DNA of 53,347 nt, from NCBI GenBank assembly GCA_041690595.1, contig JAWLHB010000054.1, forward strand, positions 1-53,347, written 5' to 3'. This document shows, piece by piece, positions 4,311 through 26,444 of the stretch; positions within the stretch are counted from its first letter, which is position 1; every line of letters starts with the position of its first letter. Origin of the DNA: Lentisphaeria bacterium. Lineage in GTDB: Bacteria; Verrucomicrobiota; Lentisphaeria; JABSQK01; JAWLHB01. The notes under the pieces were generated by a model. The model made no database searches. It saw nothing but the letters and a program-made list of their open reading frames with translations, and was not told the DNA's origin. Position numbers and translations under genes: made by a program.

Positions 4311-4500
4311 GGCGGGGTTCCTTTTGACCAGTAAAAGCAGGAGCCGATTTGGGCCGATCGGCTCCGCGCCCCTTCGCCAAAGCTGTCGGGGTGATTGAAT
4401 AGTCTTCAATGTAGTCGAATTGCGCACTGAGACAAGCCGGATGATGCACGCGTCCGTCCCCTCTCTCGGCCAGTTTCGTCCCCCCCGATGGTCCACAGCT

Positions 4501-4531
4501 TTCGCCTCGCCCCTCACCAACGCCCAACCCC
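4501..4531. repeat. Imperfect 31-bp direct repeat, copy 2 (partner 1938-1968)
   Basis: 29/31 identity to copy 1, same orientation. Confidence 0.85.
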
Positions 4532-4542
4532 TCCAGTCCCGC

Positions 4543-5886
4543 CTACTGTTCGTACCCGCGTCGGGCCATTCCATCGACAACCTGCTCGGCGGGTACCGCA
4601 CGCGGTGGGCAACCCTCATCGATGGCGATCCGAGCGGCGATTGCGGCAGCTTCGCCCATGGCAAAACAGTCGGCAATAATCCGGTAGCTCGCCAGGGCCC
4701 GATGGTCCCCGCCGATGCAACGACCCACGACGAGGAGGTTCTCAATTCCCTTCGGAAGCAAGGCCCCATAGGGAATGTGGTAGGGTTTGATCTTCTCGAT
4801 GTAGATGTCCGGCTCCTCCTCCCGGCACTTGTGGATATCGATGCTCTGGGAGACCAGGAAGAGCCCACCAGGTCGACGGCAACCATCCTGCATGTGCGCG
4901 TAGTTCACCGCTTCGTCGCAGAAAATACGACGGCTCTCGCGCACGCCAGGCAACCCGGCAATGGGGCCACATTCGATGTCGACGAACTCTTCGGTGTGCT
5001 CCTTAAGTGTGCTGAAAAAGTCGCGGCACTGGCGGCGCAACGCCACCATCGCATCCGACAGACTCTCGGCATCCAGCGGGTCGTAGCCGCACACATGGGG
5101 ACTGCCGTTCCAAATGCACTGACGGGTCCCCACCAGCGGCCGGACGCGAGCCCGGGCGTACGGAATGCGATAGCCATTTCCCGCTGCGGCCGCGGCCCGA
5201 TCTATCAGAGCGAGAAACTCGGCGTTATTCAACTCCGGTCCTGTATAGTTCGTCAGCAGATGGGAGAGGCTGATCGCTTGGCACGCCCCATCGGTCTCCC
5301 GCCCGACCGCGAACGAAGCGCCTGCCAACGCGGCCACATCTCCGTCGCCAGTGGCGTCAATCACCACTTTCGCACGAATGCCATGACGCCCCGACTTGCT
5401 CTCGACGATCACTCCGCCGAGTTGTCCGCTCTCGTCCCGCATCGGCGCCACTACGCGCGCCAGGTACAGGTGCCGCACCCCACTGTCGCTCACGAGTTCG
5501 TCCAGGTAGAGCACCGTCCGGAATGGATTCTGGTAAGGCCATTGGCAGATGCCGTGCTCGCGCAGGTGAACGATGAACTCACGGGCGAAGCCGCCCTTGT
5601 TCTCGAAATCGTTCAGCCAACTTGTGACATGCGTAAGCATTCCGCCCGGAATGGCCGTCTGCTCGACCATAACGACGGAAAGCCCTGATCGCGCCGCGCA
5701 CACTGCCGCGGCAGCCCCAGATGCACCACCTCCGGCAACGACGACGTCGACCTCATGCGAGACCGGGATCTCACGCGCAGGTTCCAGATAGCTCTTCACG
5801 TCGACTCTTTTCAGTGCTGCAAGCTCAGACGCGCCGGCAAGCATCGCCCAGACCTGCTGGTTGGCAATTTCACCCTTCATCCGCAT
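4543..5886 (-). CDS. FAD-dependent oxidoreductase (FAD_oxidored family)
   Basis: DVVVAGGGASGAAAA, VIDATGDGDVA, GVRESRRI, YHIPYGALLP, NLLVVGRCI, C.AMGEAA; start may be 5880. Confidence 0.85.
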   Translation of the reverse strand: MRMKGEIANQQVWAMLAGASELAALKRVDVKSYLEPAREIPVSHEVDVVVAGGGASGAAAAVCAARSGLSVVMVEQTAIPGGMLTHVTSWLNDFENKGGFAREFIVHLREHGICQWPYQNPFRTVLYLDELVSDSGVRHLYLARVVAPMRDESGQLGGVIVESKSGRHGIRAKVVIDATGDGDVAALAGASFAVGRETDGACQAISLSHLLTNYTGPELNNAEFLALIDRAAAAAGNGYRIPYARARVRPLVGTRQCIWNGSPHVCGYDPLDAESLSDAMVALRRQCRDFFSTLKEHTEEFVDIECGPIAGLPGVRESRRIFCDEAVNYAHMQDGCRRPGGLFLVSQSIDIHKCREEEPDIYIEKIKPYHIPYGALLPKGIENLLVVGRCIGGDHRALASYRIIADCFAMGEAAAIAARIAIDEGCPPRAVPAEQVVDGMARRGYEQ

Positions 5887-11218: not shown

Positions 11219-12823
11219 TCAGGGACGGTAGTGGCGGTAGAGGTTGAAGACGGTGCCGACCTTGAACCAGCCCGAGCTGCGCGAGACCAGCAGCTTCGTC
11301 ACCCTCGACGGGTTGTTGACACCGCTCTGCGTCCCGATGTTGTGATAGGCGCCGACTCCCGCGGCACCGCAGAGCGTGGTGACCTGCAGTTGTTGGGTTG
11401 CCGCGCAAAAGGCGAGCTGAATTTCGAACTTGATCCAACCGCCGGCATGGGCCGAGGAGGTCAATTCCACGGCGCCGGTGTTCTGGGTGTAGCCACTCGC
11501 GTGAGAGACGAGGTAGTTGGCGTTCCAGATGCTCCCCGCCCCGTCGTCCCATTGCAGGAACTCGTGTGCCGTGCTCCCGTCCGTCCATCCGGCGACCTCG
11601 AGCAGGTACCGCTCTCCGGCCACGATCTCCAGGTCAGAGAGGAGCGCGGAACCGAGCTCGCCACCGACAGTAAGGCTGGCGACCCGCTCCGTCCCACCGC
11701 CGTTAGCAAGTGCCGCAATGGCCTGCTTCACCCGCTCGGGCGTCCACAGCCGAGGCTCCGTCAGCGTTCCAGCTTCCGCCTCCGTCTGGGTGGCGATCAC
11801 CGGGTTCGGCTCGCCGCTCTCCAAGGCCGCGATGGCCTGCCCAACGCGCTCGGGCGTCCACAGTCGCGCCTCGGTCAGGCTGCCTGCTTCCGCCTCCGCC
11901 TGGCTGACCGTCACCGGCAGGCCTGCCCCCGCACTGCCGGTGACCAGGCGCGCCGTCACGCCGTCATGGTCGACCTGCAGTGCGCCAGTGCCGAAAAGCA
12001 AATCCCGGTTGCCGTCGATCACCAGGTTGCCCCCAGTTCCCTTCAGGGTGATGCTCGCCCCATCGGTCACGGTCAACCAGTAGATGCCGGCGGGTGCTTC
12101 CAGGGTAAACAGCTCATCTGCCGTGCCACTTTCCGGGGAGAGGCGGTGGCGGGACTGCGTCAGAACGGCAACGCCGTCGACGATGGCGACTTCGGTTGAC
12201 GCTGCCGGTGCGAGAAGTCCCACGTCGACGATGCCGTGCCCGTTCATCTCCAACTTACCCGTCAGGCTGCCGCCCGCGAGTGGGAGGCGCCCGGCGATCA
12301 GGGAGTCGACTTCGGCGCGATTATAGTGCATGGCGGGCAAGGGAGGCGGCAGCATGCCGCTGTGATCGATCAGGTTGCGCGCTCGCAGGACCATCTGCCC
12401 CACGTAGAAGGGACGGGTGGCCCCGGCGGCATAGACCTTCAGCTCACCGTAGATCGTCATCTCTTCGCGGCTTCCCAGCGCCTCTCGCAGGCTGGCGCTC
12501 GCGGCGTCGATCAGGATGGCAAGGCGGCCGGCGGCGGGAGCGGCGTCCGGCCACTGGTCCGGATTGTTGATTGCCTCGTTGGGTGAATAGAGGAGGACAG
12601 TCGATGCGCTGTCCCAGTCGTCATCGGCGGCCCAGGAGAAGGTATCGCTCTCGTGAAACGAGGCGGGCCGACCATCGTCGTGGATGCAGGTGAGGGCCAG
12701 CACCGCCTGTTGTTCGAGGGTGATGCGGGGCAGTTGCTCGATGGCCAGCGGGCTGCCGTCACTGTCGCAGAAGCGTTGCGCGTCGACGTTGTAGAAGGTG
12801 TGAAGTCTGGTTGAAAAGGACAT
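11219..12823 (-). CDS. Phage tail-fibre-like protein
   Basis: RLPLAGGSLTGKLEMNG..I..VG motif; two 38-aa SQAEAEAG...RLWTPERV.QAIAAL repeats; beta-rich C-terminal domain; GGAG SD before ATG 12823. Confidence 0.65.
   Translation of the reverse strand: MSFSTRLHTFYNVDAQRFCDSDGSPLAIEQLPRITLEQQAVLALTCIHDDGRPASFHESDTFSWAADDDWDSASTVLLYSPNEAINNPDQWPDAAPAAGRLAILIDAASASLREALGSREEMTIYGELKVYAAGATRPFYVGQMVLRARNLIDHSGMLPPPLPAMHYNRAEVDSLIAGRLPLAGGSLTGKLEMNGHGIVDVGLLAPAASTEVAIVDGVAVLTQSRHRLSPESGTADELFTLEAPAGIYWLTVTDGASITLKGTGGNLVIDGNRDLLFGTGALQVDHDGVTARLVTGSAGAGLPVTVSQAEAEAGSLTEARLWTPERVGQAIAALESGEPNPVIATQTEAEAGTLTEPRLWTPERVKQAIAALANGGGTERVASLTVGGELGSALLSDLEIVAGERYLLEVAGWTDGSTAHEFLQWDDGAGSIWNANYLVSHASGYTQNTGAVELTSSAHAGGWIKFEIQLAFCAATQQLQVTTLCGAAGVGAYHNIGTQSGVNNPSRVTKLLVSRSSGWFKVGTVFNLYRHYRP
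11711..11905 (-). repeat. Intragenic tandem repeat (114-bp period) in the tail-fibre-like gene
   Basis: 11711-11791 and 11825-11905 share atggcctgc..cgctcgggcgtccacag..gcttccgcctccg. Confidence 0.8.
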
Positions 12824-12837
12824 GGTGGAAAGCTCCG

Positions 12838-13704
12838 TCAAAGATTGAAAGTGTGGTGAAGGATCAGGCGGTGATCGGTAGCAGCCCAGCCGCGCCAGGT
12901 ACCTGGGGCCGGCGGGGAAAGCCGGACCTGATCGCCGTCGCCCAGTATGATCCGCAGCTCATTCGCGCTGGTGGGTCCCGCGCTTGCCGCCACCTGCGCA
13001 TAGCATCCCGCAGTCGATGCAAAATCCTGATTCTCATAGATGGCATCCGGGCGGATCCGCGAAGCGAGCACCACCAGCTCCCAGCGCTTCTCGCCGGCCG
13101 GCAGGGTAAAGTCGCAACGGGCTCGCTCGCGGCGTACGATGTAATAGCCCTCGTCCTCACAGGCATAATGGCAGACCGGACTCCCGGTCCAGGAGGGAAT
13201 CCAGGGTTCCGACGCGAATGAAGCCGCGACACTGGCAAAGGATTCCTCCACCGCGCCACCGGCTCCACGCAGCTCCTGCCCGACCAGCGCGTCGGGTTGC
13301 CGCACCGTGCAGGTCAGCTCGGCGAGCAGCGCCGCCTGCTGCCGAGCCCAGGCGGCCGCGAGTAACCCAACGTGCCGCGTCCGCAGACGTACCGGCGCAC
13401 CGATGGCCTCCAGCAAGGTCGTTTCAGACCAGGGTGGGATTGCCATCGCAGCCCCCTGCCAGAGAGCGTCGCTCCTGGTGAAATGTGGAATCAAGGCGCT
13501 GACCAGCTCGTCGAAACCGGCGCCCCAGGCGGTTGTCGGCAACTCTCCCGGCGCCAACGCCTCCCGAAGAAGCGGCGGCACCTCGACATCCACCACGGCG
13601 GCGCGCATCAGCGCATGGCGGCGCAGCGCCTCCGCGTACGGTCTCACCTGGCGCGCGACAAAGCCGTTCGCGGCCAGGAGGGAGAGTTCAGGCAGTTCTG
13701 GCAT
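12838..13704 (-). CDS. Hypothetical protein (phage-module context)
   Basis: 288-aa ORF with AAGGAGG SD, co-oriented and closely spaced with the tail-fibre-like gene. Confidence 0.6.
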   Translation of the reverse strand: MPELPELSLLAANGFVARQVRPYAEALRRHALMRAAVVDVEVPPLLREALAPGELPTTAWGAGFDELVSALIPHFTRSDALWQGAAMAIPPWSETTLLEAIGAPVRLRTRHVGLLAAAWARQQAALLAELTCTVRQPDALVGQELRGAGGAVEESFASVAASFASEPWIPSWTGSPVCHYACEDEGYYIVRRERARCDFTLPAGEKRWELVVLASRIRPDAIYENQDFASTAGCYAQVAASAGPTSANELRIILGDGDQVRLSPPAPGTWRGWAATDHRLILHHTFNL

Positions 13705-13725
13705 GATAAGCTCCTCCTTTGAGTC

Positions 13726-14091
13726 TCAGGTCCAAACCGGTACCTGGCCCAGGTACTCGCCACCGAGCGGCGTCACCAGCAGCCAGGTTCCTGGCGGCAC
13801 CGTCTCCGCTGGGTCCAGGTGCAGGATGCGAATGGCGACGCCGGTCACCGTCGCCGGCGCCTCTGGTCCATCCCCAAAAAGATCTCCGGAGTAACTCGTT
13901 CCTGGACCTCCGGACGCAATGCGCGCCGGCAGCATGGAAGAACCTCCCGGCCTCCATTCTCCCCCGCCGATTCCCTCCACGTGGATTCGGGATCCTGACT
14001 CCGTGAACTCAAGTCGAACTCCGTCTCCCTCCAGCAGTCGCGCCTGGCGCACGGCGGCTTTCAGCTCCTTTAATATTCCCCGAAGCGTCAT
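13726..14091 (-). CDS. Hypothetical protein (phage-module context)
   Basis: 121-aa ORF with GGGAGGG SD, first gene of the three-gene minus-strand unit. Confidence 0.6.
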   Translation of the reverse strand: MTLRGILKELKAAVRQARLLEGDGVRLEFTESGSRIHVEGIGGGEWRPGGSSMLPARIASGGPGTSYSGDLFGDGPEAPATVTGVAIRILHLDPAETVPPGTWLLVTPLGGEYLGQVPVWT

Positions 14092-14290
14092 CCTGTTCCC
14101 TCCCTGTTGAAACTCTAAAAGATGACATAAAATAACTCATGAGTTGCAAAAGGCAAGTCGCTTTTGAAAAGATTGTGGGGGATGGGCCGGACGAATCATT
14201 CCGTGGCTCTTCTCCGCGCGCCGGCGCGAATGATGATATAGTGACAGACGCGCGGATTTCGCATATTGCACGTTAACGAGGGTGGCATCC

Positions 14291-17200
14291 ATGGGGCATG
14301 AGATCGTTCGCTATGCCGTTGCCGAGCAACTGGATGAGGAGTTGTGGCTGCTGACGGCGCTGGAGTTGCCCCCAATCTCCTGTGTGGGAAAGGATCGGGA
14401 ACGGCTCGAGAGGGATCTGGCTGCCTTGCTGAAGGAGCAGTTGGAGCGGGGCGGCACGGGAGATCTGTGGTTCGGCAACCTGGGTGAGCGGCCGCAAACC
14501 ATGGAGATCGTGCTGGAACTGGCCGCTCCTGACCAGCAACCCGCCTGGCGCAACGGCAAACGGCTGCCTTTTCAGATCGTCTACTGGCATCACGGGCGTG
14601 AGTTGACCTGCATCATGGTGCCGGCCATCGAGCTTTTTGCCATTGTGCCCGCCGACGCGGATCTGCAGGCCAGCGCCGCGAAGCATCTTCTGGAAGCCAT
14701 TCGCCGCCTCCATCTGGGCAAGGCGCTCGATCAGTTGCCGTGGGCACTTGTGCCGCCGCGGGTGGAGATCGTGGAAATGAGCCTGAACCTCAAACTGACG
14801 ACGCCGCTTCAGGAGAAGCGGGAGCAGGACGAGGAGAAGGCAGTGCTGGTGCTCCCCCAGGTGGCGAGCGACCTGACGCGCGAACGTCTGCCGGTACATG
14901 ACGAGGTGACGGCCATGGTGCAGCTCCTGGCGGAAAGCCTCTCCGGCGAGGGCGCCCACAGTATTCTGCTGGTCGGCGAAAGTGGCGGCGGCAAGTCGAG
15001 CCTCTTCTACGAGCTGGTGCGTCGCCGTCGCGAACTGCGGCTCGGAAAATGGGAATTCTGGGAGAGCAGCGGCTCCCGTCTGGTGGCAGGAATGACCGGC
15101 TACGGCATGTGGCAGGAACGCTGCGCCAAGCTGGTGCGGGAGACGACAGGCCGCGAGTTGGTCGTTCACCTTGGCAACCTGCTCGAGTTGATGGATGCCG
15201 GCAAGAGCGTCTGCAATCCACAGGGCATCGGCTCCTACCTCAAACCTTACCTGGCGCGGGGACAGCTCCGGGTCGTTGTCGAGTGCACGCCCGAGCAACT
15301 GGCCGTGGCCGAGCGGGAAGATCCCTACCTTGTGCAGCTCTTCGAGCAACTGACGGTGCCGCGCCCACAGCCGGTGACAGTCGCGGCGATCCTGCGCGGG
15401 GTGGCCGCCCGTCTGCGCGCCGCCGAGGAGGAGCCGCTCAGCCCTGAAGCCCTCGCCGAGATCGACCGGCTGCATCGGCGCTTCGCTCCTTATTCTGCCT
15501 ATCCCGGCCGCCCCGTTCGCTTTCTCCGCAACCTGCTTGCCGACGCACCCCGTCGCCAACAGGTCACGGTCATCGATGTGCAGCGGGCGTTCGCCCGCGA
15601 AACCGGGCTGCCACTGCTCTTTCTCGATGAAAGCCAACGCCTTGACCTGGCCGAGACCCGCCGCTATATCACCGACCGGGTGATCGGGCAGCTCCCGGCC
15701 GTGGATGAGGTCGTCGCTCGCCTGGCTATGGTCAAGGCCGATCTCAGCCGGCCACGACAACCCATCGCCTCCCTCCTCTTCATCGGCCCCACCGGCGTCG
15801 GCAAGACCGAGATGGCCAAGACGATTGCCGCCTTTCTCTTTGGCAACCCGGAGCGCCTCATCCGTTTCGACATGAGCGAGTACGCCGACTGGTTCGCCGT
15901 GGATCGACTCATTGGCGCCCGATCGGCCGAGGGCCTGCTCACCGCACGGGTACGCGAACAACCGTTTTCCGTCGTCCTGCTGGACGAGTTCGAGAAGGCG
16001 CACCCGCGTTTCTTCGACCTCCTGCTGCAGATTATGGGTGAAGGACGGCTGACCGATGCGGCGGGCCGTACGGCGGATTTCTGCAGCTCCGTGATCATCA
16101 TGACCTCCAATCTCGGAGCGACGACCTACCAGCGCGGAACCTTGGGATTCCCGACCGGAGAAGATGAGGGAGAGCGCGCCGTCAGCCACTTCACCGGGGA
16201 AGTGCGCCGCTTTCTGCGACCGGAGATCCATAACCGGATCGACAGCATCGTCGCCTTTCTGCCGCTGGACAGCGCTGCGATCGCCCAGATCGCCCGGCGT
16301 GAGCTGGACCTGATACGCAAGCGTGACGGCATCTGGCAGCGTGGTGTCGGCCTGCGGGTTGCCGATGAGGTGACCGGGCAACTCGCCCTGGCAGGTTGGG
16401 ATCCGCGCTACGGGGCTCGGCCGCTGAAGCGCACCATCGAAAGGCGCTTGCTCGCGCCCCTGGCACAACGCCTCAATCTCTACGCCGATAACGCGCCTCT
16501 GCACGTGGACGTGACACAACCGGCGGAGAAGATCGAGATCGCCGTATCCGCAAGCAATGCCGAAGTGAGTGCGGCCGCGTCGGTGGTCGGCGAAAGCATT
16601 GCCGAGCGGATGCTGACCTTGCGCCGACTGACGCAGCGGCTGGAGCAGCACGATGTCATGATCGCCATTCGCAATCGGATCGATGAACTCGAACGCCTGC
16701 GACAGCTGGCCAGGTTGCGCGGGGAGAGCGAACCGCCGCGGCAGGCATCACGCTTGCAGCAGTTGCAGGCGCTGGATATGCGGGTTGGCGATCTTGCGGG
16801 CGAGGTGGCCGCGCTGGAAGACGCGGTGATGCTCCGGGCCTATCGCCAGCAAGAGCCGGCCGAGCAGGACGTGAAGCAGTTGCGCGAAGCGGAAGCTGCT
16901 GTCGAAGAGGCGGTGTTGCGGGTTTACTCCGCCGAGGCTGAGAACGCGGACCAGGTATCCCTCGCCATCCTGGGGCAGGAGCGCCATCTGGTGCTTCAAC
17001 TGGCCCGGGGATACTGGGGCTATGCTCGCGACCGCTTCCGCTGCGAAGCTTACATCCTCCGTCCGTTGAACGAAGACGAACGCGCGGCGGAGTGCCGGCG
17101 CCCGCCGGAAACCGATTTGTCGACGCTTCCGCCGGAAGAACCTTGGCTGCGACCTGAGCCCCTGACGGGCCCGGATCCCCTGGCGGAACTGCCGTCACGG

Positions 17201-17548
17201 CGACTTTACGGCCTGCTGCTTCACCTGCGCGGACCCCTGGCCTATGCCCATTTCAGCACGGAGGCGGGCCGCCACCAGTTTGTGGCCTCCAGCGTACGAA
17301 CAAGCTGTCTGGTCGATATCTCCACCCTCGAGCCGGAAGCTTACCAGCCTCCCCCCCTCTTGACGCCGGAGCTGAAAATGGAGAGTCTCCCCCTTCGGCG
17401 TGTCTACGACGAAGCGCGTACCGACATCTTCGACAAACGGTTGGACAAGCATTACCTCTTGACGGGCAAACGCCTGGAGAAGCTCTTCGAAACGCTCTTG
17501 ACGGACAACCTGCGCCACACCTCGCAAACCCTCCTGGAGACTGCATGA
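14291..17548 (+). CDS. ClpA/ClpB-like double AAA+ ATPase 1 with C-terminal degenerate release-factor (PCRF-like) module
   Basis: D1 GESGGGKSS; D2 LFIGPTGVGKTE, FDMSEY, VVLLDEFEKAH, GRLTD, IMTSNLG, GARPLKR; C-terminal GPLAYAHFSTEAGRHQF; alternative start GTG 14282. Confidence 0.85.
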   Translation: MGHEIVRYAVAEQLDEELWLLTALELPPISCVGKDRERLERDLAALLKEQLERGGTGDLWFGNLGERPQTMEIVLELAAPDQQPAWRNGKRLPFQIVYWHHGRELTCIMVPAIELFAIVPADADLQASAAKHLLEAIRRLHLGKALDQLPWALVPPRVEIVEMSLNLKLTTPLQEKREQDEEKAVLVLPQVASDLTRERLPVHDEVTAMVQLLAESLSGEGAHSILLVGESGGGKSSLFYELVRRRRELRLGKWEFWESSGSRLVAGMTGYGMWQERCAKLVRETTGRELVVHLGNLLELMDAGKSVCNPQGIGSYLKPYLARGQLRVVVECTPEQLAVAEREDPYLVQLFEQLTVPRPQPVTVAAILRGVAARLRAAEEEPLSPEALAEIDRLHRRFAPYSAYPGRPVRFLRNLLADAPRRQQVTVIDVQRAFARETGLPLLFLDESQRLDLAETRRYITDRVIGQLPAVDEVVARLAMVKADLSRPRQPIASLLFIGPTGVGKTEMAKTIAAFLFGNPERLIRFDMSEYADWFAVDRLIGARSAEGLLTARVREQPFSVVLLDEFEKAHPRFFDLLLQIMGEGRLTDAAGRTADFCSSVIIMTSNLGATTYQRGTLGFPTGEDEGERAVSHFTGEVRRFLRPEIHNRIDSIVAFLPLDSAAIAQIARRELDLIRKRDGIWQRGVGLRVADEVTGQLALAGWDPRYGARPLKRTIERRLLAPLAQRLNLYADNAPLHVDVTQPAEKIEIAVSASNAEVSAAASVVGESIAERMLTLRRLTQRLEQHDVMIAIRNRIDELERLRQLARLRGESEPPRQASRLQQLQALDMRVGDLAGEVAALEDAVMLRAYRQQEPAEQDVKQLREAEAAVEEAVLRVYSAEAENADQVSLAILGQERHLVLQLARGYWGYARDRFRCEAYILRPLNEDERAAECRRPPETDLSTLPPEEPWLRPEPLTGPDPLAELPSRRLYGLLLHLRGPLAYAHFSTEAGRHQFVASSVRTSCLVDISTLEPEAYQPPPLLTPELKMESLPLRRVYDEARTDIFDKRLDKHYLLTGKRLEKLFETLLTDNLRHTSQTLLETA

Positions 17549-20500
17549 AGGCGCGACTCTCCGTTTATGTGGTGAAGGATACCGACGCATCGGCGCCGGT
17601 ATACCGCTTTCAACCGCTCTTCTTCAGCACGCCGATGGTCAGCCATGCGCGACTGCAGCGAGGTATGGAGCGCTTTACTCGTGAACTCCGCAAGCATCTC
17701 GAGCAGCTCGGGAAGACTCAGGATCAGCAGGTGCTGGCCGGATGGCTCTACGCCCCGCCAGTCGACTATCGGCTGCTCGATGTCACCCTGGATCTGCGCC
17801 GCAGCCTGGCCCGTTGCCGTTACCTCTTTGCCATCTGTGACACCCGTGCCGGACTGGTCGCCTTCACCCCCTCCTTGCCCCACCTCTGGTTCGACCTGCA
17901 GAGCATCGCCGAACTTCCCGAACGTGCCCGCGAGGTGCTGACGCATCACTTCCGCGAGCAGGAGCGACAGTACGGAGAGGATGCCGATGCACCCGCCGAC
18001 CATGCCTTGAACGGCACCGCCTGGCTCTCCACCGTCGAGTTCGACCTGGACCCAAAGCAGGGGCTCGATCCCGAGGAGACTTCGTTTCTCGATCTCATGG
18101 AAGGCGGGGGTGCCCCCGGAACGGGCGAGATGGACGGCGAAGAGGAGCTGGATAGAGTAGGGCGGTGCCTGGATGCCCTCTATCCGGACGACCTCGATCG
18201 CGTTATCGGCAACGAGTCGCTGCTGGAGGAGCTGGAGCGTCACCTGAGTGGTCGCGACAGGCGGCCTCTCCTGCTGGTGGGACCGCCCCAGGTCGGCAAG
18301 ACTGCGCTCGTCCACGAAATCGTCTGGCGCCGTAATGCGGCGCGACAGCGAAGCACCGGCAACCGACGGCAGGTGTGGCTGATGTCGCCCCAGCGGCTCA
18401 TCGCTGGAATGTCCTACGTGGGACAGTGGGAGAATCGCCTGCTGGCGGTCCTCGACGAGGTGAAGCGGTGCAAGCACGTCCTTTACGTGGACGACCTGCT
18501 TGGACTGTTCAAGGCCGGACTGGGCGCGCAGTCGAGCGTCAGTGTCGGCCACCTGTTGAAACCGACGCTCGAACGGCGTGAAGTGCGTTTGCTCGCGGAA
18601 ATCACGCTCGAGGGGTGGCGGCGCCTGCGGGAGATCGATCGCGGCTTCGCCGAGCTTTTTCATGTGATGCACGTGCGGGAGCCCGCGCAGGACGAGATGT
18701 GGCGGGTTCTGGTGGCGGTGCAGCGGCGCCTCGAGGCTCGCCATCGCTGCAAGTTCACCGTGGATGCGTTGCCGATGGTCGTTGAACTGCAGCAGCGCTA
18801 CCAGCGCAGCGTGGCCTTTCCCGGCAAGGCCGCATCCTTCCTCGGCCAGCTGGCCATACGCCTGCGCGACAAGACCATCGACCGCGGCGAGGTGCTCCGC
18901 GGTTTTCACGACAAGAGCGGCCTTCCCCTCTCCTTCCTCGACCGCCGCGAACGCTTGCGCCGCATCGATATCCTCAACCACATGAAGCAGCGGATCATCG
19001 CGCAGGATGCGGCCCTCGAGACCCTCGCCGACGTCGTCTCCATCGGCCGCGCCAGGCTGAACGATCCCGCCCGCCCGCTCGGCTCCCTCCTCTTTCTGGG
19101 GCCAACCGGAGTCGGCAAGACCGAATGCGCCAAGGCTCTTGCCGCCTATCTCTTCGGATCCGAGGAGCGACTCCTGCGCTTTGACATGAATGAGTTCTCC
19201 ACGCCCGCCTCCGTGACCAGGCTCACCGGTTCCTTCTACGAGCCGGAAGGGTTGCTGACCAGCGCCGTTCGACGGCAACCATTCGCCGTGGTCCTCCTCG
19301 ACGAGATCGAAAAGGCCCACCGGGACGTGCATGACCTCCTGCTGCAGGTGATGGGAGAGGGCAGACTCAGCGATGCCCTCGGACGAACCACCGATTTTGC
19401 CAGCACTATCCTGGTGATGACCAGTAACCTTGGCGTGCGTCAGGCAGCCTCGCCGCTGGGCTTTGAGACGCGGCAGCAGAGCCGCGACGCTGTCTACATC
19501 GAGGCCGTCGAGAGCTTCTTCCGTCCGGAATTTGTCAATCGCATCGACCATCTGGTTCCCTTCCAGCGCCTTGGGCGCGAGGCCATCGGACGCATTGCCG
19601 AGCTGCAGGTTCAGGAAGTCTTTGCCAGGGAAGGACTGGCGCGCCGCCTGTGCATGCTGCAGATCGCCCCGGCGGCGCGCGAGCAACTGGTCGAGGAAGG
19701 GTATCATCCCCTGCTGGGTGCCCGGGCCATGCGGCGCGCCATCGAGCGGCGGCTGACTCGACCGATCGCCGCCCGGCTGGCCCGGCTCGAAAGCTCCGAG
19801 CCGATGCTGGTTCAGGTCGAGGCCGCCGAAGGTGGCGACTTGAGCGTCGAGCTGCGGATTCTCTCTGCCCACGCTCGTGATCCACTGGCCGTGGCCGCCG
19901 CGGACATCATGCCGATGGAGGAGACCGAACAGCGCCTGGTGGAGACCCTTGACCTCCTCGAAGAGGATTTGCGGTCGTGGGAACCGGAGGGAGCGGTGAG
20001 CGACGCCGACCTCGCCAGCGTGGAGTATCGCTACTTCCTGGGACGTGACCTTCTGCAGCAGATGCGTTATCGTCTGTCGCGCCTGAGGGAACTGAGCGCT
20101 GCTCCCGTACGAGCCCCCGCGCAGACGGTCTACCAGACCAGGCAATGGTCGGAGACGCTGGGTGAGTGGTTGTCGATCGACGCTTGGCGAAGTCGCCTGA
20201 ACGAGAGCGGCATCGGCGGTGACCCTGCCCAACCGACGCCGCCCCTGCTCCTGCTCCTGATCGACCATGCTTATCTCGGGCTCCTGGCCGAAGGGGATGT
20301 CGCGGGAGGACATCTCACGGAGATGGTGCTGCGGCCGATCGACCCTCAGTTCATGACCATCGCCGGCCGGCTCGGCAACCTCTATCGCGAAACCTTTGCG
20401 GAGCAGTTTGGCGCCCAGGTCAGCCTCCAGGAAGAAGAGGGGCAGCTCCGTCTGACCATACGGGGGCCGGAGGTTGCGGAACTGGCGCGGCGGGAAGGCG

Positions 20501-20733
20501 GCCTTCACGTCTTTCGGCGGGCAGGAGAGTCGCTGGCCCCGGTACGGGTAATCGTCGATGGCGTCGAGGAGTCGGCGGTAGTTCGGTTGTACAGCGAAAT
20601 CGATGCGACCTTCGACCTGCGGCATGGCCTCTTCGTCGACGCGTTCCCCGTGCCATGGCAAATGCGGATTCTGCTGGCTGGGGCGCTTCCCTTCTCCCGC
20701 GCCTGGCATGAAGAAGCCCTGGAGGACGAGTAA
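17545..20733 (+). CDS. ClpA/ClpB-like double AAA+ ATPase 2 with C-terminal degenerate release-factor-like module
   Basis: D1 GPPQVGKTA; D2 GPTGVGKTE, VVLLDEIEKAH, FRPEFVNRID, GARAMRR; C-terminal LTIRGP..ARREGGLHVF..VRLY..FDLRHG; ATGA overlap with ATPase 1. Confidence 0.85.
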   Translation: MKARLSVYVVKDTDASAPVYRFQPLFFSTPMVSHARLQRGMERFTRELRKHLEQLGKTQDQQVLAGWLYAPPVDYRLLDVTLDLRRSLARCRYLFAICDTRAGLVAFTPSLPHLWFDLQSIAELPERAREVLTHHFREQERQYGEDADAPADHALNGTAWLSTVEFDLDPKQGLDPEETSFLDLMEGGGAPGTGEMDGEEELDRVGRCLDALYPDDLDRVIGNESLLEELERHLSGRDRRPLLLVGPPQVGKTALVHEIVWRRNAARQRSTGNRRQVWLMSPQRLIAGMSYVGQWENRLLAVLDEVKRCKHVLYVDDLLGLFKAGLGAQSSVSVGHLLKPTLERREVRLLAEITLEGWRRLREIDRGFAELFHVMHVREPAQDEMWRVLVAVQRRLEARHRCKFTVDALPMVVELQQRYQRSVAFPGKAASFLGQLAIRLRDKTIDRGEVLRGFHDKSGLPLSFLDRRERLRRIDILNHMKQRIIAQDAALETLADVVSIGRARLNDPARPLGSLLFLGPTGVGKTECAKALAAYLFGSEERLLRFDMNEFSTPASVTRLTGSFYEPEGLLTSAVRRQPFAVVLLDEIEKAHRDVHDLLLQVMGEGRLSDALGRTTDFASTILVMTSNLGVRQAASPLGFETRQQSRDAVYIEAVESFFRPEFVNRIDHLVPFQRLGREAIGRIAELQVQEVFAREGLARRLCMLQIAPAAREQLVEEGYHPLLGARAMRRAIERRLTRPIAARLARLESSEPMLVQVEAAEGGDLSVELRILSAHARDPLAVAAADIMPMEETEQRLVETLDLLEEDLRSWEPEGAVSDADLASVEYRYFLGRDLLQQMRYRLSRLRELSAAPVRAPAQTVYQTRQWSETLGEWLSIDAWRSRLNESGIGGDPAQPTPPLLLLLIDHAYLGLLAEGDVAGGHLTEMVLRPIDPQFMTIAGRLGNLYRETFAEQFGAQVSLQEEEGQLRLTIRGPEVAELARREGGLHVFRRAGESLAPVRVIVDGVEESAVVRLYSEIDATFDLRHGLFVDAFPVPWQMRILLAGALPFSRAWHEEALEDE

Positions 20734-20734
20734 G

Positions 20735-22996
20735 ATGGCCGCATATCGATTCCCGGTGCTGCTTTGGGAGGATCACACAGGCTGGTTCACGGCCGCCGTC
20801 GTCGAGTCCTATTATGACGTCTGGGCCGGCGCCGCCTCCGGCCGCGAAGCTCTCAACCTCATCAAGGAAGCGCTTCAGGATACCTTCAAGCGAGTGCCGT
20901 GGGAAGCGCCCCCGGATCTGGCTCACTGCCGCCTCCACCACGTTGTCGTACCGGTTCGCACCGAGTACGAAGCCGGCAATCGCTACTATCCCAGCACCAA
21001 CCCAACGGATCTGCGGGTCAGCGCGGTCACGGGCGAGGAGGCGGGTGGCTCACGGATCTGTTACCTGCCCATGTTTGACGTAAGCTTCGGCTACTATGTC
21101 GATACGGAACTGCCCGACCTGGTGCGCACCCAGGTGCAGGACCTCTTCCGTGGCAAGTCGCCGCGGGACATGATGGAGTACCTGCCGCCTCGGCAGGTCT
21201 GGCTGGAGGAGGTTGTCCTTCAGGTCAAGGCGCGCCCGCCGACAGGACGTGATCTGCAGCCTCCCCTCAGGCAGCTCTCCGCGATTGCCGAACCGCTCGG
21301 TGACAATCGGCTGCGGCAGCAGTTCTCCCGAGCCTGGGAACGGGACGCGGAGGTCGCCGAGCTCGTCCAGCGCCTCGGCCACGAAAGGGCCAACCTCATT
21401 CTTCTGGGCCCGTCGGGCATCGGCAAGACCTCTCTCCTGATCGACGCCGCAAGGCGCCTGGAACGCGGCGGCGAGGAAGAGGGCGCAATCCAGCGCTACT
21501 GGTTGACCAGCGGTCCGCGGATCATTGCGGGCATGCGGTATCTCGGCCAGTGGGAGGAGCGATTTGGTGCGGCAGTCCGTGAGTTGGCTTCCCTTGGCGG
21601 CGTCTTGTGCCTCGAACGGCTGGTTGACGTGGTGCGACTCGGGGGGGAGGAGGCCACCGACAGCGTCGCCGCCTTCATGAGCAGCTTCATGCAGTATGGT
21701 GAGCTGCGCGTGGTGGCCGAAGCGACACCGGCCGAACTCGACCTCTGCCGTCGCCTCATGCCCGGCTTCGTCGAGCAGTTCCAGATCCAGTCGATACCGG
21801 AGTTCACCTCCGCGCAGGCCATGGCGGTCCTGGAGCGTCTTGCCCAACAGGCGCGGCAGCAGTGGCGATTGCGCTGGGAGCGGGGGACCGCCGAGCTGAT
21901 CTACCGCCTTCACCGGCGCTTCCTGCCCTACCAATCCTTTCCCGGGCGGGTCACTGCCTTTCACCAGCGGCTGACCCGAGAGATTCGCCGCCAGCGACGG
22001 ACAACGGTGACCGCGCGCATGATCTTCGAGGCCTTTGCCAGGGAGACGGGGCTGCCCGACTGGATGCTGCGCGACGAGATGACCCTGAGGGCCCCGGAGG
22101 TCGAAGAGGCCCTTTCCCAGCGCCTCGTCGGTCAGCCCGAAGCGTGCCACGCCGTGGCCAATGCGGTCACCATCTTCAAGGCGGCGCTCAACGATCCGGA
22201 GCGACCGATTGCCGTCCTGCTCTTTCTTGGCCCCACCGGCGTCGGTAAGACGCAGTTGGCACGCACGCTGGCGGACTATCTCTTCGGGCATGGCAGCGAC
22301 CGGGATCGCATGGTCAGGCTGGACATGAGCGAGTATTCCGGCCTCGATGCCGCCGATCGCCTGGTCATGGCTCCCGATGGCACGCCCAGCATCTTCCTCC
22401 AGCGACTCCGGCGCCAACCCTTCAATGTCGTTCTCCTCGACGAAATCGAAAAGGCTTCCCCCGAAGTCTTCGATCTCCTCCTCAACGTGCTGGATGAAGG
22501 GCGGCTGACGGACCGCCAGGGGCGAGTCACCTGGTTCCGCGGATGCATCATCATCATGACCTCCAATCTCGGGGCGAGACATCGCGCCATCACCGGCTTC
22601 GGCGAGGCTGCCGCCCCCCTGGGTGAAGCGGAGTTAATGCGCTTCTTTCGCCCCGAATTCGTCAATCGTATCGATGAGGTCATTCATTTCCGTCCTTTGG
22701 GCCAGGAAGAGATCGTGCGGATCACTCAACTGGAACTGGCGGCGCTCGCGGAGCGAGAAGGGCTGACCCGCCGTCAGCTTCGCCTGACCTGGGATGAGGA
22801 GGTCGTCACCTTTCTTGCCCGTGCGGGCACGGATCCGGAGCTTGGCGCACGCCCCCTGCAACGGGCCATCGAACGCCATCTCAGCCAGACGCTCGCGGCA
22901 TTCATCGTCAGCCATCCGGCATTCCGCGAGGGCCGCCTGCACCTTCGGCTCGATCGAGAGGCCGGCATTGTCATGACGCCCCATCCTCAGCCCTGA
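20735..22996 (+). CDS. ClpA/ClpB-like double AAA+ ATPase 3 (no C-terminal extension)
   Basis: D1 GPSGIGKTS; D2 GPTGVGKTQ, LDMSEY, VVLLDEIEKAS, FRPEFVNRID, GARPLQR; ATG 1 nt after the ATPase 2 stop, with GGAGGA SD. Confidence 0.85.
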   Translation: MAAYRFPVLLWEDHTGWFTAAVVESYYDVWAGAASGREALNLIKEALQDTFKRVPWEAPPDLAHCRLHHVVVPVRTEYEAGNRYYPSTNPTDLRVSAVTGEEAGGSRICYLPMFDVSFGYYVDTELPDLVRTQVQDLFRGKSPRDMMEYLPPRQVWLEEVVLQVKARPPTGRDLQPPLRQLSAIAEPLGDNRLRQQFSRAWERDAEVAELVQRLGHERANLILLGPSGIGKTSLLIDAARRLERGGEEEGAIQRYWLTSGPRIIAGMRYLGQWEERFGAAVRELASLGGVLCLERLVDVVRLGGEEATDSVAAFMSSFMQYGELRVVAEATPAELDLCRRLMPGFVEQFQIQSIPEFTSAQAMAVLERLAQQARQQWRLRWERGTAELIYRLHRRFLPYQSFPGRVTAFHQRLTREIRRQRRTTVTARMIFEAFARETGLPDWMLRDEMTLRAPEVEEALSQRLVGQPEACHAVANAVTIFKAALNDPERPIAVLLFLGPTGVGKTQLARTLADYLFGHGSDRDRMVRLDMSEYSGLDAADRLVMAPDGTPSIFLQRLRRQPFNVVLLDEIEKASPEVFDLLLNVLDEGRLTDRQGRVTWFRGCIIIMTSNLGARHRAITGFGEAAAPLGEAELMRFFRPEFVNRIDEVIHFRPLGQEEIVRITQLELAALAEREGLTRRQLRLTWDEEVVTFLARAGTDPELGARPLQRAIERHLSQTLAAFIVSHPAFREGRLHLRLDREAGIVMTPHPQP

Positions 22997-23180
22997 CGGA
23001 GAGCTGTTACTTGTTTAACAGTGAAAAAACGTTAGGAAATCGTTTGGAAGTGGGTATTCACCGCCTACGTTTGTTGCCATAAGCAGAAAGATAGCTTGTA
23101 TGACAGGGGTTCAGGGGCATACTAATGCTGATTGGGGATAGTGGTGACACTGCAATGACAAGTGAAATGGGGTATTGGTG

Positions 23181-24266
23181 ATGGATTCAGCGAATGTGAC
23201 AGAGACGCGACCGGCACCCAAACGCCTGCCGGCGAAGCAACACCGTATACTCGAGAGTATTCGCGATGCGATTGTCTCGGGGCGCCTTGCACCGGGTGAT
23301 CAGCTGCCGACGCGCGTGCAGATGGAAGAGTACTTCAATGCCAGCAGTGTGACTGTACAACGGGCAATAAACCAACTGCTCACCGACGGCTTTCTCGTGG
23401 CCAGCGGGCGCAGCGGCACCTTTGTCACCAAGCATCCACCGAATCTCTTCGAGTACGCCGTGGTCGTGCGTGGCAGCACCCCCAACGACCTGCTGCAGAC
23501 GGTCCGCGACTGTGTTGTTGAGCAAGCATTTCAGATCAGTGACTGTCGAACCTTCAACCTGCAGGTGCTCAGCGGCATGCACGATACGGCTGCTGGGCCG
23601 GCGTTCGATCAGTTGGCCGCTTCCCTGGAGGGCAAACTCCTTGCTGGCATCATTCTGATCGGGCAGAGTCCCGCGCTGCTGGATAAAGGCGTCCTCAAAG
23701 ACGAGGATATCCCTTGCGCATGCGTGGACTTCCACAGCTGGCGGCGGGGAATCGGCACGGTCCTGCTGGATGGAACTTCGCTCATCACGCTGGGGCTCGG
23801 CGAGGTGAAGCGGCGTGGGCTGCGGCAGGTGGCCATGCTGTTGCCCAATGGCTTTCCTCTGCATCGCCCGGAATTGATGGAGTTGGTGACCGAGCGCGAC
23901 CTGCGCTGTGAGCCATGGACCATCCAAAGCCAGGCCCCATCCTCTCCCCATTGGGTCGAGGCACAGGTGCACCTCATGCTGGAACTGCCGGAGGCGAGGC
24001 GGCCGGATGCCCTGGTGATCGCTGACAGCCGGATGGTGGCGCCTGCCCTTGCCGCCATGGCGGAGCGGGGTATCAAACCAGGCAGAAACATGCTGGTGGT
24101 GGCCCGTTGCGATCTGCCACATTCCACGCTGCTCCCCATGGGCACGATTGGGGTGGGCTACGACGCCTGGGAGATCATCGATACCGCCGTGCGCACCATC
24201 AAGCAGATGAAACAGGGCGAGGTCCTGCGCCAATCCGAGAAAATAATTGCCAGGCTCGCCGAATGA
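23181..24266 (+). CDS. GntR-family transcriptional regulator with LacI-type ligand-binding domain
   Basis: I..G.LAPGDQLPT..M...FNASSVTVQRAI..L...G....GRSGTFV wHTH; RPDALVIAD, GIKPGRNM C-terminal domain. Confidence 0.8.
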   Translation: MDSANVTETRPAPKRLPAKQHRILESIRDAIVSGRLAPGDQLPTRVQMEEYFNASSVTVQRAINQLLTDGFLVASGRSGTFVTKHPPNLFEYAVVVRGSTPNDLLQTVRDCVVEQAFQISDCRTFNLQVLSGMHDTAAGPAFDQLAASLEGKLLAGIILIGQSPALLDKGVLKDEDIPCACVDFHSWRRGIGTVLLDGTSLITLGLGEVKRRGLRQVAMLLPNGFPLHRPELMELVTERDLRCEPWTIQSQAPSSPHWVEAQVHLMLELPEARRPDALVIADSRMVAPALAAMAERGIKPGRNMLVVARCDLPHSTLLPMGTIGVGYDAWEIIDTAVRTIKQMKQGEVLRQSEKIIARLAE

Positions 24267-24419
24267 ACCGCCGCCGAAACGGATACGAGTTGGCTCAAGC
24301 CTGAGCGTCAAGACTTGCATTCGGCATGGAAACAGGCACATTGTCTCTGTGTCCTTTGAAGCGGGGGCAGAGCTTTGCCTCTATTACCAATTTTGTACCC
24401 TCGAAGTCTGGTGTGTGTG

Positions 24420-26444
24420 ATGACGCCGAAGCGCAACACGATTATTGAGAGCTTGGGAGTGTATCTGCCACCCAAGGTGGTGCCGACGCGCGATGTCATG
24501 CGGGCATGTCGCAATACCGTCCTCTATCCACTTGAGCGGTTGACCGGGATCAAGTTCCGCCGCATGGCGGGTGATAACGAATTCTCGATCGACTTGGCTC
24601 GCAAAGCCATCGCCTCCTGTCTGGAGCGTTCGAAGTATCAGCCGGGGGACATCGACCTGCTCATCTGCTGTAACATCTCCCGTTATGATGGGCCCAACTT
24701 TCAGTTCTCCTTCGAACCAAGCACCTCCGCCAAGCTGCGCGATCACTTTGGCCTGGTCAACGCCATCTGCTTTGACATCTCCAACGCCTGCGCGGGCATG
24801 TTCACCGGCGTAACGGTGGCGGACGGCTTCATCAAGGCTGGCGCGGCCCGCAACGCCCTGGTTGTCAGCGGCGAGTATATCACCCACCTGACCCGCACGG
24901 CGCAGCAGGAAATCGAGAACAATGAGGACGACCGCGTTGCCTGCCTGACTCTCGGCGATTCCGGCGCGGCCGTGGTTCTGGAGCCATCTCCGGATGACCA
25001 GCATGGCTTTCACGATCTGGATCTGTACACGCTTGGCCGTTACAGCGAGTTCTGCATCGCCCGGCCGACCGAGCATGAGCATGGCGGCGCCATCATGTTC
25101 ACCGAGTCGATCAAAATCCACGCCGTGGCGATCAAGGAATCCGTGATGCATCTGGGGCGCACCTTGAAGAAGCTGCGTTGGCCCAAGCAGTCCATCAGTC
25201 ATGTGATCATGCATCAGACGGCGCGCACCGCTATCTCGGAGCTTGCCCGGCAGGTCAACCAGATGCTGCGCGAGGAAGTGTGCAACCGCACCACCATGGT
25301 CAACAACCTCGCCGAACGGGGCAACACCTCCACCACCAGTCACTTTGTCGCCATCTGGGACAACATCCTGCGCCAGCGCATTCGCTCGGAGGAGAGTGTC
25401 GTCTTTGCCATTCAGGCTTCCGGCATCACCATCGGCACCGCTCCCTACACCTTCGACAACCTGCCCGACCGCCTGCGCACCATGGTCGCCAACAAGCAGG
25501 CCGCGCCAAAGCTGATGGCGGTGCCGCCGAAAACCAACGACCATCTCAAGGGCCCCCGCATCCGGATCGAGAGCATTGGTCTCGTGCCCGATGCGCCGGA
25601 CCGCCCCCGGGATTCCATCGAACTGGCCCGCCTGGCCGGCGAAGCCTGTTTCGCCAATTCCGCTCACGAGCGCGGTCAGATCGACCTACTGCTCAACGCT
25701 GGCGTTCATCGCAACGAGTTCATCTGTGAGCCGGCCATTGCCGCCCTGATTGCCGGCAAGCTGCGCCTCAACGATGTGGCCGATGGTCCGCCCGATGCCA
25801 AGACCCTCGCGTTTGACATCTTCAATGGCGCCGTCGGCTTCCTCGATGCCTGCTTCAGCGCCCTGACCATGATCAAGGCCGGCAAGCACCGCCATGTCAT
25901 GGTTGTCACCAGCGAGATCGAAAACAACGCCGACATCTATCCCGACCGCGTGCTCAATCTCAAAGAGACCGGCAGCGCCCTCATTCTCGAGGAAGATGCC
26001 GACGGCACCACCGGCTTCGGCGCCTTCGCCTTTCGCTACTTCACCCAGTACATCGACCGATTTGTCTCCAGCATCGGCCAGAATCATGGCATCAACTTTC
26101 TTCGCTTCTTCAAGGATCCCGACCTGGAGCGCCTCTACCTCGACTGCATCCCCCAGGTCGTCCGTGAGGTGCTGGCCAAGGAGAAGCTCGAGCTTCATCA
26201 GATCACCGCGATCTTCCCGCCGCAGATCTCCAGCGACTTCATCGCCAAGCTCGGCGGTAAGCTGTCGGTAGCCAAGGAGAAGATGGTGGATATTGCCCTG
26301 GAAGGCAAAGACTTCTTCACCTCGTCCATGCCCTTTGCCGTCAAGCACGCGCAGGAGAGCGGCATGGTGAAAGCCGGCGATATCGGCCTGATCATCAACG
26401 TCGGTACCGGCATCCAAGTCGCCTGCGCCATCTACTACTTCTGA
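24420..26444 (+). CDS. Tandem-duplicated 3-oxoacyl-ACP synthase III (FabH/OleA-like) didomain
   Basis: Domain 1 FEPST, DISNACAG, IMHQT, GNTS; domain 2 repeats the fold (CEPAIA, FDIFNGAVG, IFPPQIS, FFTSS, GTGIQV) without catalytic Cys/His/Asn. Confidence 0.85.
   Translation: MTPKRNTIIESLGVYLPPKVVPTRDVMRACRNTVLYPLERLTGIKFRRMAGDNEFSIDLARKAIASCLERSKYQPGDIDLLICCNISRYDGPNFQFSFEPSTSAKLRDHFGLVNAICFDISNACAGMFTGVTVADGFIKAGAARNALVVSGEYITHLTRTAQQEIENNEDDRVACLTLGDSGAAVVLEPSPDDQHGFHDLDLYTLGRYSEFCIARPTEHEHGGAIMFTESIKIHAVAIKESVMHLGRTLKKLRWPKQSISHVIMHQTARTAISELARQVNQMLREEVCNRTTMVNNLAERGNTSTTSHFVAIWDNILRQRIRSEESVVFAIQASGITIGTAPYTFDNLPDRLRTMVANKQAAPKLMAVPPKTNDHLKGPRIRIESIGLVPDAPDRPRDSIELARLAGEACFANSAHERGQIDLLLNAGVHRNEFICEPAIAALIAGKLRLNDVADGPPDAKTLAFDIFNGAVGFLDACFSALTMIKAGKHRHVMVVTSEIENNADIYPDRVLNLKETGSALILEEDADGTTGFGAFAFRYFTQYIDRFVSSIGQNHGINFLRFFKDPDLERLYLDCIPQVVREVLAKEKLELHQITAIFPPQISSDFIAKLGGKLSVAKEKMVDIALEGKDFFTSSMPFAVKHAQESGMVKAGDIGLIINVGTGIQVACAIYYF

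Follow-up and report, generated by a model that had tools for sequence, protein, structure and literature searches.

A conserved three-gene Hsp100 set with release-factor-derived arms: a candidate heteromeric ClpP-docking remodeller

The window analysed here is the whole of contig JAWLHB010000054.1 (53,347 nucleotides), from the 8.1 Mb genome of a Lentisphaeria bacterium. It carries three co-directional genes on the forward strand, called A, B and C in the following, whose open reading frames (ORFs) are all open and intact and encode paralogous ATPases of the Hsp100/Clp type (Table 1). As an earlier note on this DNA had described from the letters alone, each protein contains two AAA+ modules (here D1 and D2), B overlaps A by ATGA and C follows B after a single nucleotide; the three are 37-38% identical to one another over 520-600 aa of AAA+ core. 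To our knowledge, the known bacterial Hsp100/Clp motors are homohexamers that pull their substrates with GYVG loops in D2. The trio, as the three proteins are collectively named, has lost these loops, is retained as a set of three and carries, on two of its members, C-terminal arms derived from a class I release factor (RF).

Table 1. Features of the trio locus, with coordinates in the window
Feature	Position	Strand	Remarks
Shine-Dalgarno-like GAGGG	14278..14282	+	8 nt before the ATG of A (14291); read from the sequence
Gene A, 1085 aa	14291..17548	+	N-domain, degenerate D1, intact D2, release-factor-like arm
A N-domain	14291..14860	+	Second half matches TTHA1756 (2yzt), E=0.0019; homologous to the N-domains of B and C
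A D1 ring	14888..15625	+	Walker A present, Walker B GN; Arg finger missing; pore loop still aromatic (shifted by one)
A D2 ring	15626..16519	+	Catalytic motifs all invariant, GYVG absent
A LGF, ClpP-docking-type loop	16142..16150	+	xGF in 49/49 A
A arm	16520..17545	+	Domains 1, 2 and 4 derived from RF2; deletion of GGQ domain 3; shorter SPF loop and helix-5 tip
Gene B, 1062 aa	17545..20733	+	Layout as A, arm more divergent; ATGA overlap with A
B N-domain	17545..18159	+	Homology by hhalign, 79% and 96%
B D1 ring	18196..18930	+	Walker B DD, pore loop YVG; Arg finger missing
B D2 ring	18931..19824	+	Catalytic motifs all invariant, GYVG absent
B LGF, ClpP-docking-type loop	19456..19464	+	xGF in 56/58 B
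B arm	19825..20730	+	Same origin as the A arm, more eroded
Gene C, 753 aa	20735..22996	+	No arm; N-domain followed by degenerate D1 and intact D2; separated from B by 1 nt
C N-domain	20735..21274	+	First half weakly like HicB antitoxin, E=0.14; hhalign 98% to A
C D1 ring	21323..22054	+	Walker B ER, most homologs having EN; canonical Arg finger missing; pore loop YLG
C D2 ring	22055..22939	+	Catalytic motifs all invariant, GYVG absent
C ITGF, ClpP-docking-type loop	22589..22600	+	xGF in 70/74 C

Motif conservation was counted over 181 aligned trio proteins (49 A, 58 B and 74 C). In D1, Walker A is kept together with an aromatic pore loop, which reads GFG in A, YVG in B and YLG in C. At Walker B the window proteins have VVHLGNL (A), LYVDDL (B) and LCLERL (C), and across the homologs the motif is GN, DD or EN by type; the canonical DE(I/L)H occurs in 0/181. 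The ERRF arginine fingers are lost as well, with an RRF motif remaining in one protein of the 181. Since a glutamate just before sensor 1 is near-invariant (48/49 A, 58/58 B, 74/74 C), the chemistry of D1 may be altered rather than plainly dead. The catalytic motifs of D2, namely Walker A, LxDExEK, TSN, the NRxD arginine finger and GAR, are kept almost without exception, and its pore loop GY(V/I)G is found in a single trio protein versus 17/17 canonical controls. The xGF loop is present in 175/181 proteins, with the spacing seen in ClpA/ClpC-like controls, and is absent in ClpB-like ones. What the earlier note had read from the window proteins (Walker A in both rings, a non-canonical D1 Walker B, LLDExEK in D2, a replaced GYVG and an xGF loop after TSNLG) is thus borne out. 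A D1 pore loop without catalytic residues, stacked on a catalytic D2 without GYVG, does not make a standard unfoldase. In ClpA, D1 loops engage the substrate and D2 loops drive robust unfolding (PMC8666677); judged by its motifs, the trio would be able to grip but ill-suited to unfolding stable proteins.

The last 340 residues of A form an arm that corresponds to a class I release factor whose catalytic domain is missing. When a profile of 48 A tails was searched against PDB sequences, RF2 came first (E=1.8e-10), and domains 1, 2 and 4 were matched in collinear order. The alignment-based fold model of the A arm has a pLDDT of 90 (41 for a single-sequence prediction), and a Foldseek search with this model gave release factors only among the matches listed. 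Structure comparison placed release factors at Z=15.0, 14.8, 14.6 and 14.3 (rmsd 3.3-7.6, 154-252 residues aligned), helical bundles at 11.1 or below and PrfH at 8.3. The B tail is homologous both to its counterpart in A (96% by hhalign) and to seven release factors (92%), with E=0.014 in the PDB profile search. Profiles were needed to detect this homology, because the arms have no significant pairwise BLAST match to the host RF2 and Pfam PCRF matches only 7/48 A arms, the A arm of the window not among them.

The spacing of the two core motifs tells what was removed. From E-x-G-x-H to R-x-Y there are 122 residues in release factors and a median of 38 in A and 31 in B, as measured where both patterns matched (22/48 A tails, 13/56 B tails), so that domain 3 with its GGQ (about 85 residues) has been deleted. 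In the profile alignments, the SPF/PxT stop-codon loop and the tip of helix 5 are both shortened. The letters GGQ appear in 7/150 A tails, and in the one inspected (P0002) they stand at a GSQ-like spot before R-x-Y; this GSQ-like stretch suggests that the arms originate from RF2. Taken together, alignments and fold model show arms that would be unable to release peptide or to read stop codons in the usual way. Two arginine pairs of the A arm are conserved, R778/R779 at 99 and 98% and R1036/R1037 at 89 and 99%. One 772-aa A gene, L213:4392-6710 (+), has lost most of D2 and kept the arm, through either a deletion or an assembly error.

At their other end, the three proteins have N-domains that are mutually homologous by hhalign. 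They are not Clp-N domains: in line with the earlier note, Pfam gives no Clp-N match in the full proteins or in the N-terminal pieces of A, B and C. A weak resemblance to HicB stays below firm significance, with E=0.14 for HicB itself, E=0.0019 for TTHA1756, which we take to be HicB-like, and 0.76 in the Atlas search. A check for tandem copies, comparing half with half by hhalign, gave 34%, 15% and 1%; the N-domains may weakly resemble tandem HicB-like modules. A complex prediction of the three N-domains scored 0.78, with one control at 0.64, and says nothing either way.

Conservation of the trio as a set was assessed by scanning GTDB genomes with a C-type N+D1 alignment and analysing the best 80 of 150 confirmed loci. 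The order A-B-C on one strand is found in 54/80 loci, while 11/80 are cut by a contig end; the remaining loci show B and C in 5/80 (one with an inverted A nearby) and C alone in 10/80. Ten genomes with incomplete loci (8 of the 10 C-alone loci, one contig-edge case and one B+C case) were searched genome-wide, and each of the ten contains three strong members, of which two are long and the third is short; in one of these genomes C is split. In one closed chromosome the members lie scattered, at 0.70, 1.14 and 3.86 Mb. Single trio genes split into overlapping frames, by assembly error or true breakage, were seen at L033 (B), L058 and L079 (A), L066 and L094 (B), and L096 (C). No conserved fourth gene emerged in the 80 loci, the largest neighbour cluster being generic kinases (8/80). 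The family is large, with 403 clusters at 50% identity that match the A arm at E<=1e-30, and its proteins carry plain database names such as ClpC.

Unbiased phylum samples, comprising 1,300 genomes in total, were searched with a mixed D1 profile, the centres being excluded. Carriers were found in 11/250 Planctomycetota, 4/250 Acidobacteriota and 14/200 Vulcanimicrobiota, and in 0/300 genomes each from the phylum of a Desulfobacterales carrier and from the window's own phylum; 0/40 close relatives have the trio. All 29 trio-type carriers possess three members, one of them with an extra sister-type gene, a figure to be read with kin that are not independent and with searches that score 9-13 candidates per genome at cut-offs of 1e-44 to 1e-50. 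Of the 15 carriers in Planctomycetota and Acidobacteriota, 13 could be typed as A+B+C and the other two in two of their three genes, and the members in Vulcanimicrobiota were counted only. Three lone matches in the samples are not trio members: two are canonical Clp proteins and one cannot be assigned to A, B or C.

In a quick IQ-TREE analysis of 64 cores, which is unrooted, without bootstrap and with 11 sequences dropped by their trimming pattern, A, B, C, the sister type and the canonical Clps are each split off by a branch with an SH-aLRT of 100. The paralogs are 37% identical to each other versus 54-57% to proteins of the same type in other phyla. The earlier note had proposed looking for conserved arrays, as opposed to singletons or a recent decaying duplication; conserved arrays are what the genomes contain, and the three clades extend across phyla. 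A recent decaying tandem duplication or an assembly artefact would account for the degenerate motifs and for nothing beyond them. It is refuted by the intact frames, the identity values, the three supported clades and the invariant type-specific motifs, and we give it practically no credence. The three clades together with the three-member carriers also make co-assembly likely. At the level of sequence, these comparisons establish an ancient three-gene Hsp100 set in which the A, B and C subunits are not interchangeable.

The patchy spread, together with end domains that evolve fast and the weak HicB-like matches, could point to a conflict or antitoxin system. HicB-like N-domains and release-factor mimics would then be decoys: toxins or phage proteins directed against mRNA, release factors or the A site would be caught and delivered to ClpP, or would set off a response. 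Against this stand flanks made up of ordinary metabolic genes and no defence islands: among 134 flanking ORFs only 3 match PADLOC, two of them helicase-type models. The trio proteins themselves match PADLOC only in AAA-domain stretches, with no full-length match to a defence model. Carriage by phages or plasmids was considered and rejected, as viral contigs and plasmids yielded no member of the family, only canonical-like Clp matches of 19-32% identity. In addition, the third-position GC content (GC3) of the trio, 0.77-0.78, is like that of the neighbouring genes and matches the host, and the HicB resemblance falls short of firm significance. A role in conflict is therefore unlikely, although it deserves about one part in five of our confidence.

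A single-gene sister family, found at L109:4384-7929 (-), L110:1054-4557 (+) and L129:2578-5577 (-), casts light on the origin of the arms. It was seen in three genomes, all of which also have the trio, and comprises at least 120 database proteins, two of which bear automatic names that join ClpA and release factor. Its members, often with HEAT repeats (or else with no N-domain), have a degenerate D1 Walker B, a D2 without GYVG and the xGF loop. They keep a near-complete RF2, including a GGQ-less domain 3 (prfB E=7.8e-16), and the glutamate beside D1 sensor 1 together with an RRLF motif. In the simplest history, a Clp would have been fused to RF2 and would then have lost GGQ; triplication would have followed, then the removal of domain 3 and, in C, of the arm. 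A lone 1174-aa frame related to the family, L238 (G1165:C67:47414-48160), has a D1 RRF motif and no GYVG, and is not assignable to A, B or C.

The sister family also bears on how the three proteins assemble. Three separate homohexamers, or armed subunits with an unarmed regulator, could act in one pathway without a mixed ring: each protein has the full D2 motif set, the single-gene sister family shows that the architecture is able to stand alone, and trio genes can be scattered. The strict co-retention of three equally degenerate paralogs, their translational coupling and the type-specific D1 motifs are, on the other hand, what complementary ring interfaces predict, and separate rings seem improbable to us, more so than a role in conflict. 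Far better supported is one mixed ring that contains all three proteins, in the simplest case a four-armed A2B2C2, which we regard as very likely from the sequence patterns. The earlier note's proposal, a heteromer with a hydrolysis-poor D1 ring that docks on ClpP, remains the likeliest assembly. Its term "unfoldase" is doubtful, as the ring that hydrolyses ATP has lost the substrate-gripping loop, and the proposal had left out the release-factor arms, which hint at the function better than any other feature. The shared N-domain, the loss of the D1 arginine fingers, the D1 pore loop and the glutamate beside D1 sensor 1 also go beyond it.

The genome that harbours the trio encodes three canonical Clp ATPases (ClpA-, ClpB- and ClpC-like) on other contigs, a sole full-length ClpP match on a contig different from that of the trio, and RF1 and RF2; the trio is thus an addition to the housekeeping set. 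The earlier note's remark that no ClpP, ClpS or type VI secretion system (T6SS) partner lies nearby stands, with no ClpS or T6SS family in a Pfam scan of 15 neighbouring ORFs (460-28870). In 81 flanking ORFs of trio loci there is no T6SS family either.

A possible experimental foothold is Myxococcus xanthus, which has three tandem genes of the ClpA/B family. A published table lists MXAN_4823-4825 (ABF91057.1, ABF88121.1 and ABF88791.1) with 1149, 1127 and 836 aa and about 28-31% identity to reference ClpA (PMC11423568 Table S1). These lengths fall within the ranges of A, B and C (994-1204, 979-1184 and 718-844 aa). In another study, the three genes are reported as one operon induced by chloramphenicol, with log2FC of 3.57/2.67/2.61 at 8 h and of 1.47/2.17/1.92 in adapted cells (PMC6617876). 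A protein database search with the family gave no Myxococcus name among the matches listed, and the literature searched contained no other paper naming MXAN_4823-4825. By length and gene order, the Myxococcus operon is a probable copy of the trio.

We propose that the trio is a heteromeric, ClpP-docking remodeller that its arms aim at stalled ribosomes. Its parts differ in strength. The ring would probably dock on the host ClpP, as its xGF loops suggest. For the arms, which are joined directly to the small subdomain of D2, we see an even chance that they attach to stalled or damaged ribosomes at the site of the release factor, or to a release-factor partner at that site, and thereby activate D2; a target linked to translation is, in general, equally balanced. 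The D1 pore loops and the N-domains would hold a loosely folded client, be it a nascent chain, a ribosomal protein or a bound factor. D2 would then pry this client off and hand it to ClpP, with none of the strong processive pulling seen in ClpA. The trio would in this way serve as an accessory machine for quality control under translation stress. As a whole, the model is possible and somewhat less than an even bet. Its most specific form, an A2B2C2 Hsp100 ring that finds stalled ribosomes via RF2 mimics, couples this to extraction and ClpP and constitutes a bacterial counterpart of Cdc48-type ribosome-associated quality control (RQC), present in M. xanthus as MXAN_4823-4825, is rather doubtful.

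Several observations weigh against the remodeller model. Most of the invariant arm residues (E991, G993, H995, Y908, R1037) are residues of the release-factor core fold. The arms have a median pairwise identity of 20%, where D1 and D2 reach 44-55% and the RF1/RF2 proteins of comparable genomes 45-52%, and such fast evolution of the arms is unlike a conserved rRNA-binding surface. Their codon-reading loops are cut back, whereas PrfH uses that loop for recognition. Robust unfolding is unlikely for a D2 without GYVG (PMC8666677). ClpP occurs in 0/184 trio loci, and there is no conserved translation neighbour, since RtcB, a ThpR-like and an ArfB-like ORF are each present in 1/184. The Myxococcus operon is tied to the trio by size and gene order only, and the 8-h chloramphenicol condition raised 625 genes, canonical clpC among them (PMC6617876).

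Some of these points would be at home in a heteromeric activator of a stress protease. In that case, the arms would be regulatory coiled-coil or client-binding modules, like the M domains of ClpB and ClpC, with no link to the ribosome, and the ring would feed unfolded or mistranslated proteins to ClpP. The all-or-none retention and the xGF data fit equally well, as do the low conservation of the arms, their mainly structural invariants and the missing arm of C. If the Myxococcus genes are orthologous, their induction was moreover read by the authors of that study as degradation of unfolded proteins (PMC6617876). Such an activator leaves unexplained why RF2 was recruited and retained in two subunits and why a large sister family has a near-complete RF2, and the genome already has ClpA-, ClpB- and ClpC-like proteins. 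It is the least unlikely of the alternatives, slightly ahead of the conflict system, and clearly behind the ribosome-directed remodeller.

By their defining features, the trio proteins are not members of ClpA, ClpB, ClpC, ClpV, RF1/2 or PrfH; they have a ClpA-like build and a RF2-like arm fold. They share with ClpA/ClpC two stacked AAA+ modules without a long middle domain (core of 524 aa versus 531 in ClpA-like proteins), intact D2 catalytic motifs, the xGF loop and an aromatic D1 pore loop. Unlike ClpA/ClpC, they have no Clp-N, have lost the D1 Walker B, the D1 arginine fingers and the D2 GYVG, carry tails derived from a release factor, come as three obligate paralogs on a separate tree branch, and score 264-363 bits versus an NCBIfam cut-off of 993 (TIGR02639). 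ClpB and ClpV/TssH have the same double-ring Hsp100 core, and ClpV is dedicated to the remodelling of one assembly. Nevertheless, the trio differs from ClpV/TssH in having no T6SS neighbourhood (211-296 bits versus a cut-off of 885) and from ClpB in having no M domain (ClpB core about 653 aa) and in having an xGF loop where ClpB-like proteins lack one. Heteromeric AAA+ rings as such are known from Pex1/Pex6 and the proteasomal Rpt subunits.

With RF2/RF1 (Pfam PCRF and RF-1), the arms have in common the fold of domains 1, 2 and 4 and both core motifs; they differ in the missing GGQ domain, the shortened loop and helix-5 tip and the fusion to an ATPase. As in PrfH-RtcB, a release-factor core has been given a task other than the reading of stop codons. 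The core of PrfH binds rRNA and not mRNA (bioRxiv 2021.09.22.461353). PrfH, however, keeps its GGQ and works with RtcB. The likeness to Cdc48/Vms1 in RQC is a functional analogy only, that of an AAA+ motor linked to a protein of the release-factor family (PMC6514570); the AAA+ clade and the RF fold are unrelated, and Vms1 is catalytic and a separate protein.

A literature search for heteromeric Hsp100 paralogs returned unrelated papers only, and no description of a Clp-release-factor fusion or of the trio was found in a search whose scope excluded most subscription journals; the main text of a 2019 release-factor review (PMC6514570) does not contain "clp". If the reading holds, the trio would represent a new AAA+ design, with three obligate subunit types, a pore loop in an apparently dead ring, ATPase activity in a loopless ring and arms that mimic a release factor. 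Should the arms prove to bind ribosomes, the quality control of translation in bacteria would gain a new branch, and a true copy in Myxococcus would make the family testable in a harmless and genetically tractable host.

Some individual loci have further neighbours. An RtcB gene at L084:1907-3439 (+) and a LigT/ThpR-like phosphoesterase gene at L061:2789-3331 (+) lie directly upstream of gene A on the same strand; a link to RNA repair was rejected as chance, each being a single occurrence in 184 loci. An ArfB-like GGQ protein is encoded at L213:1229-1627 (-), about 2.8 kb upstream of the truncated A gene.

A scan for promoters and terminators gave signals at or below chance. In the window itself, three orphan ORFs (540, 288 and 121 aa) at 11219-14091 (-), divergent from the trio and single-copy in the genome, have no Pfam or PADLOC match and one weak PHROG match only; we take them to resemble remnants of a phage tail or baseplate. 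At 2119-4886 (-), about 9 kb from the trio, the gene for a Schlafen/AlbA_2 protein with HATPase_c_4 overlaps that for a ParA-like ATPase, a possible conflict-type pair. On the other side, 178 nt 3' of gene C, a regulator with a GntR helix-turn-helix and a periplasmic-binding-like domain is encoded at 23175-24266 (+), which is not conserved beside homologous trios. It is followed at 24375-26444 (+) by a gene whose 689-aa product consists of two FabH-like (ACP synthase III) units fused to each other.

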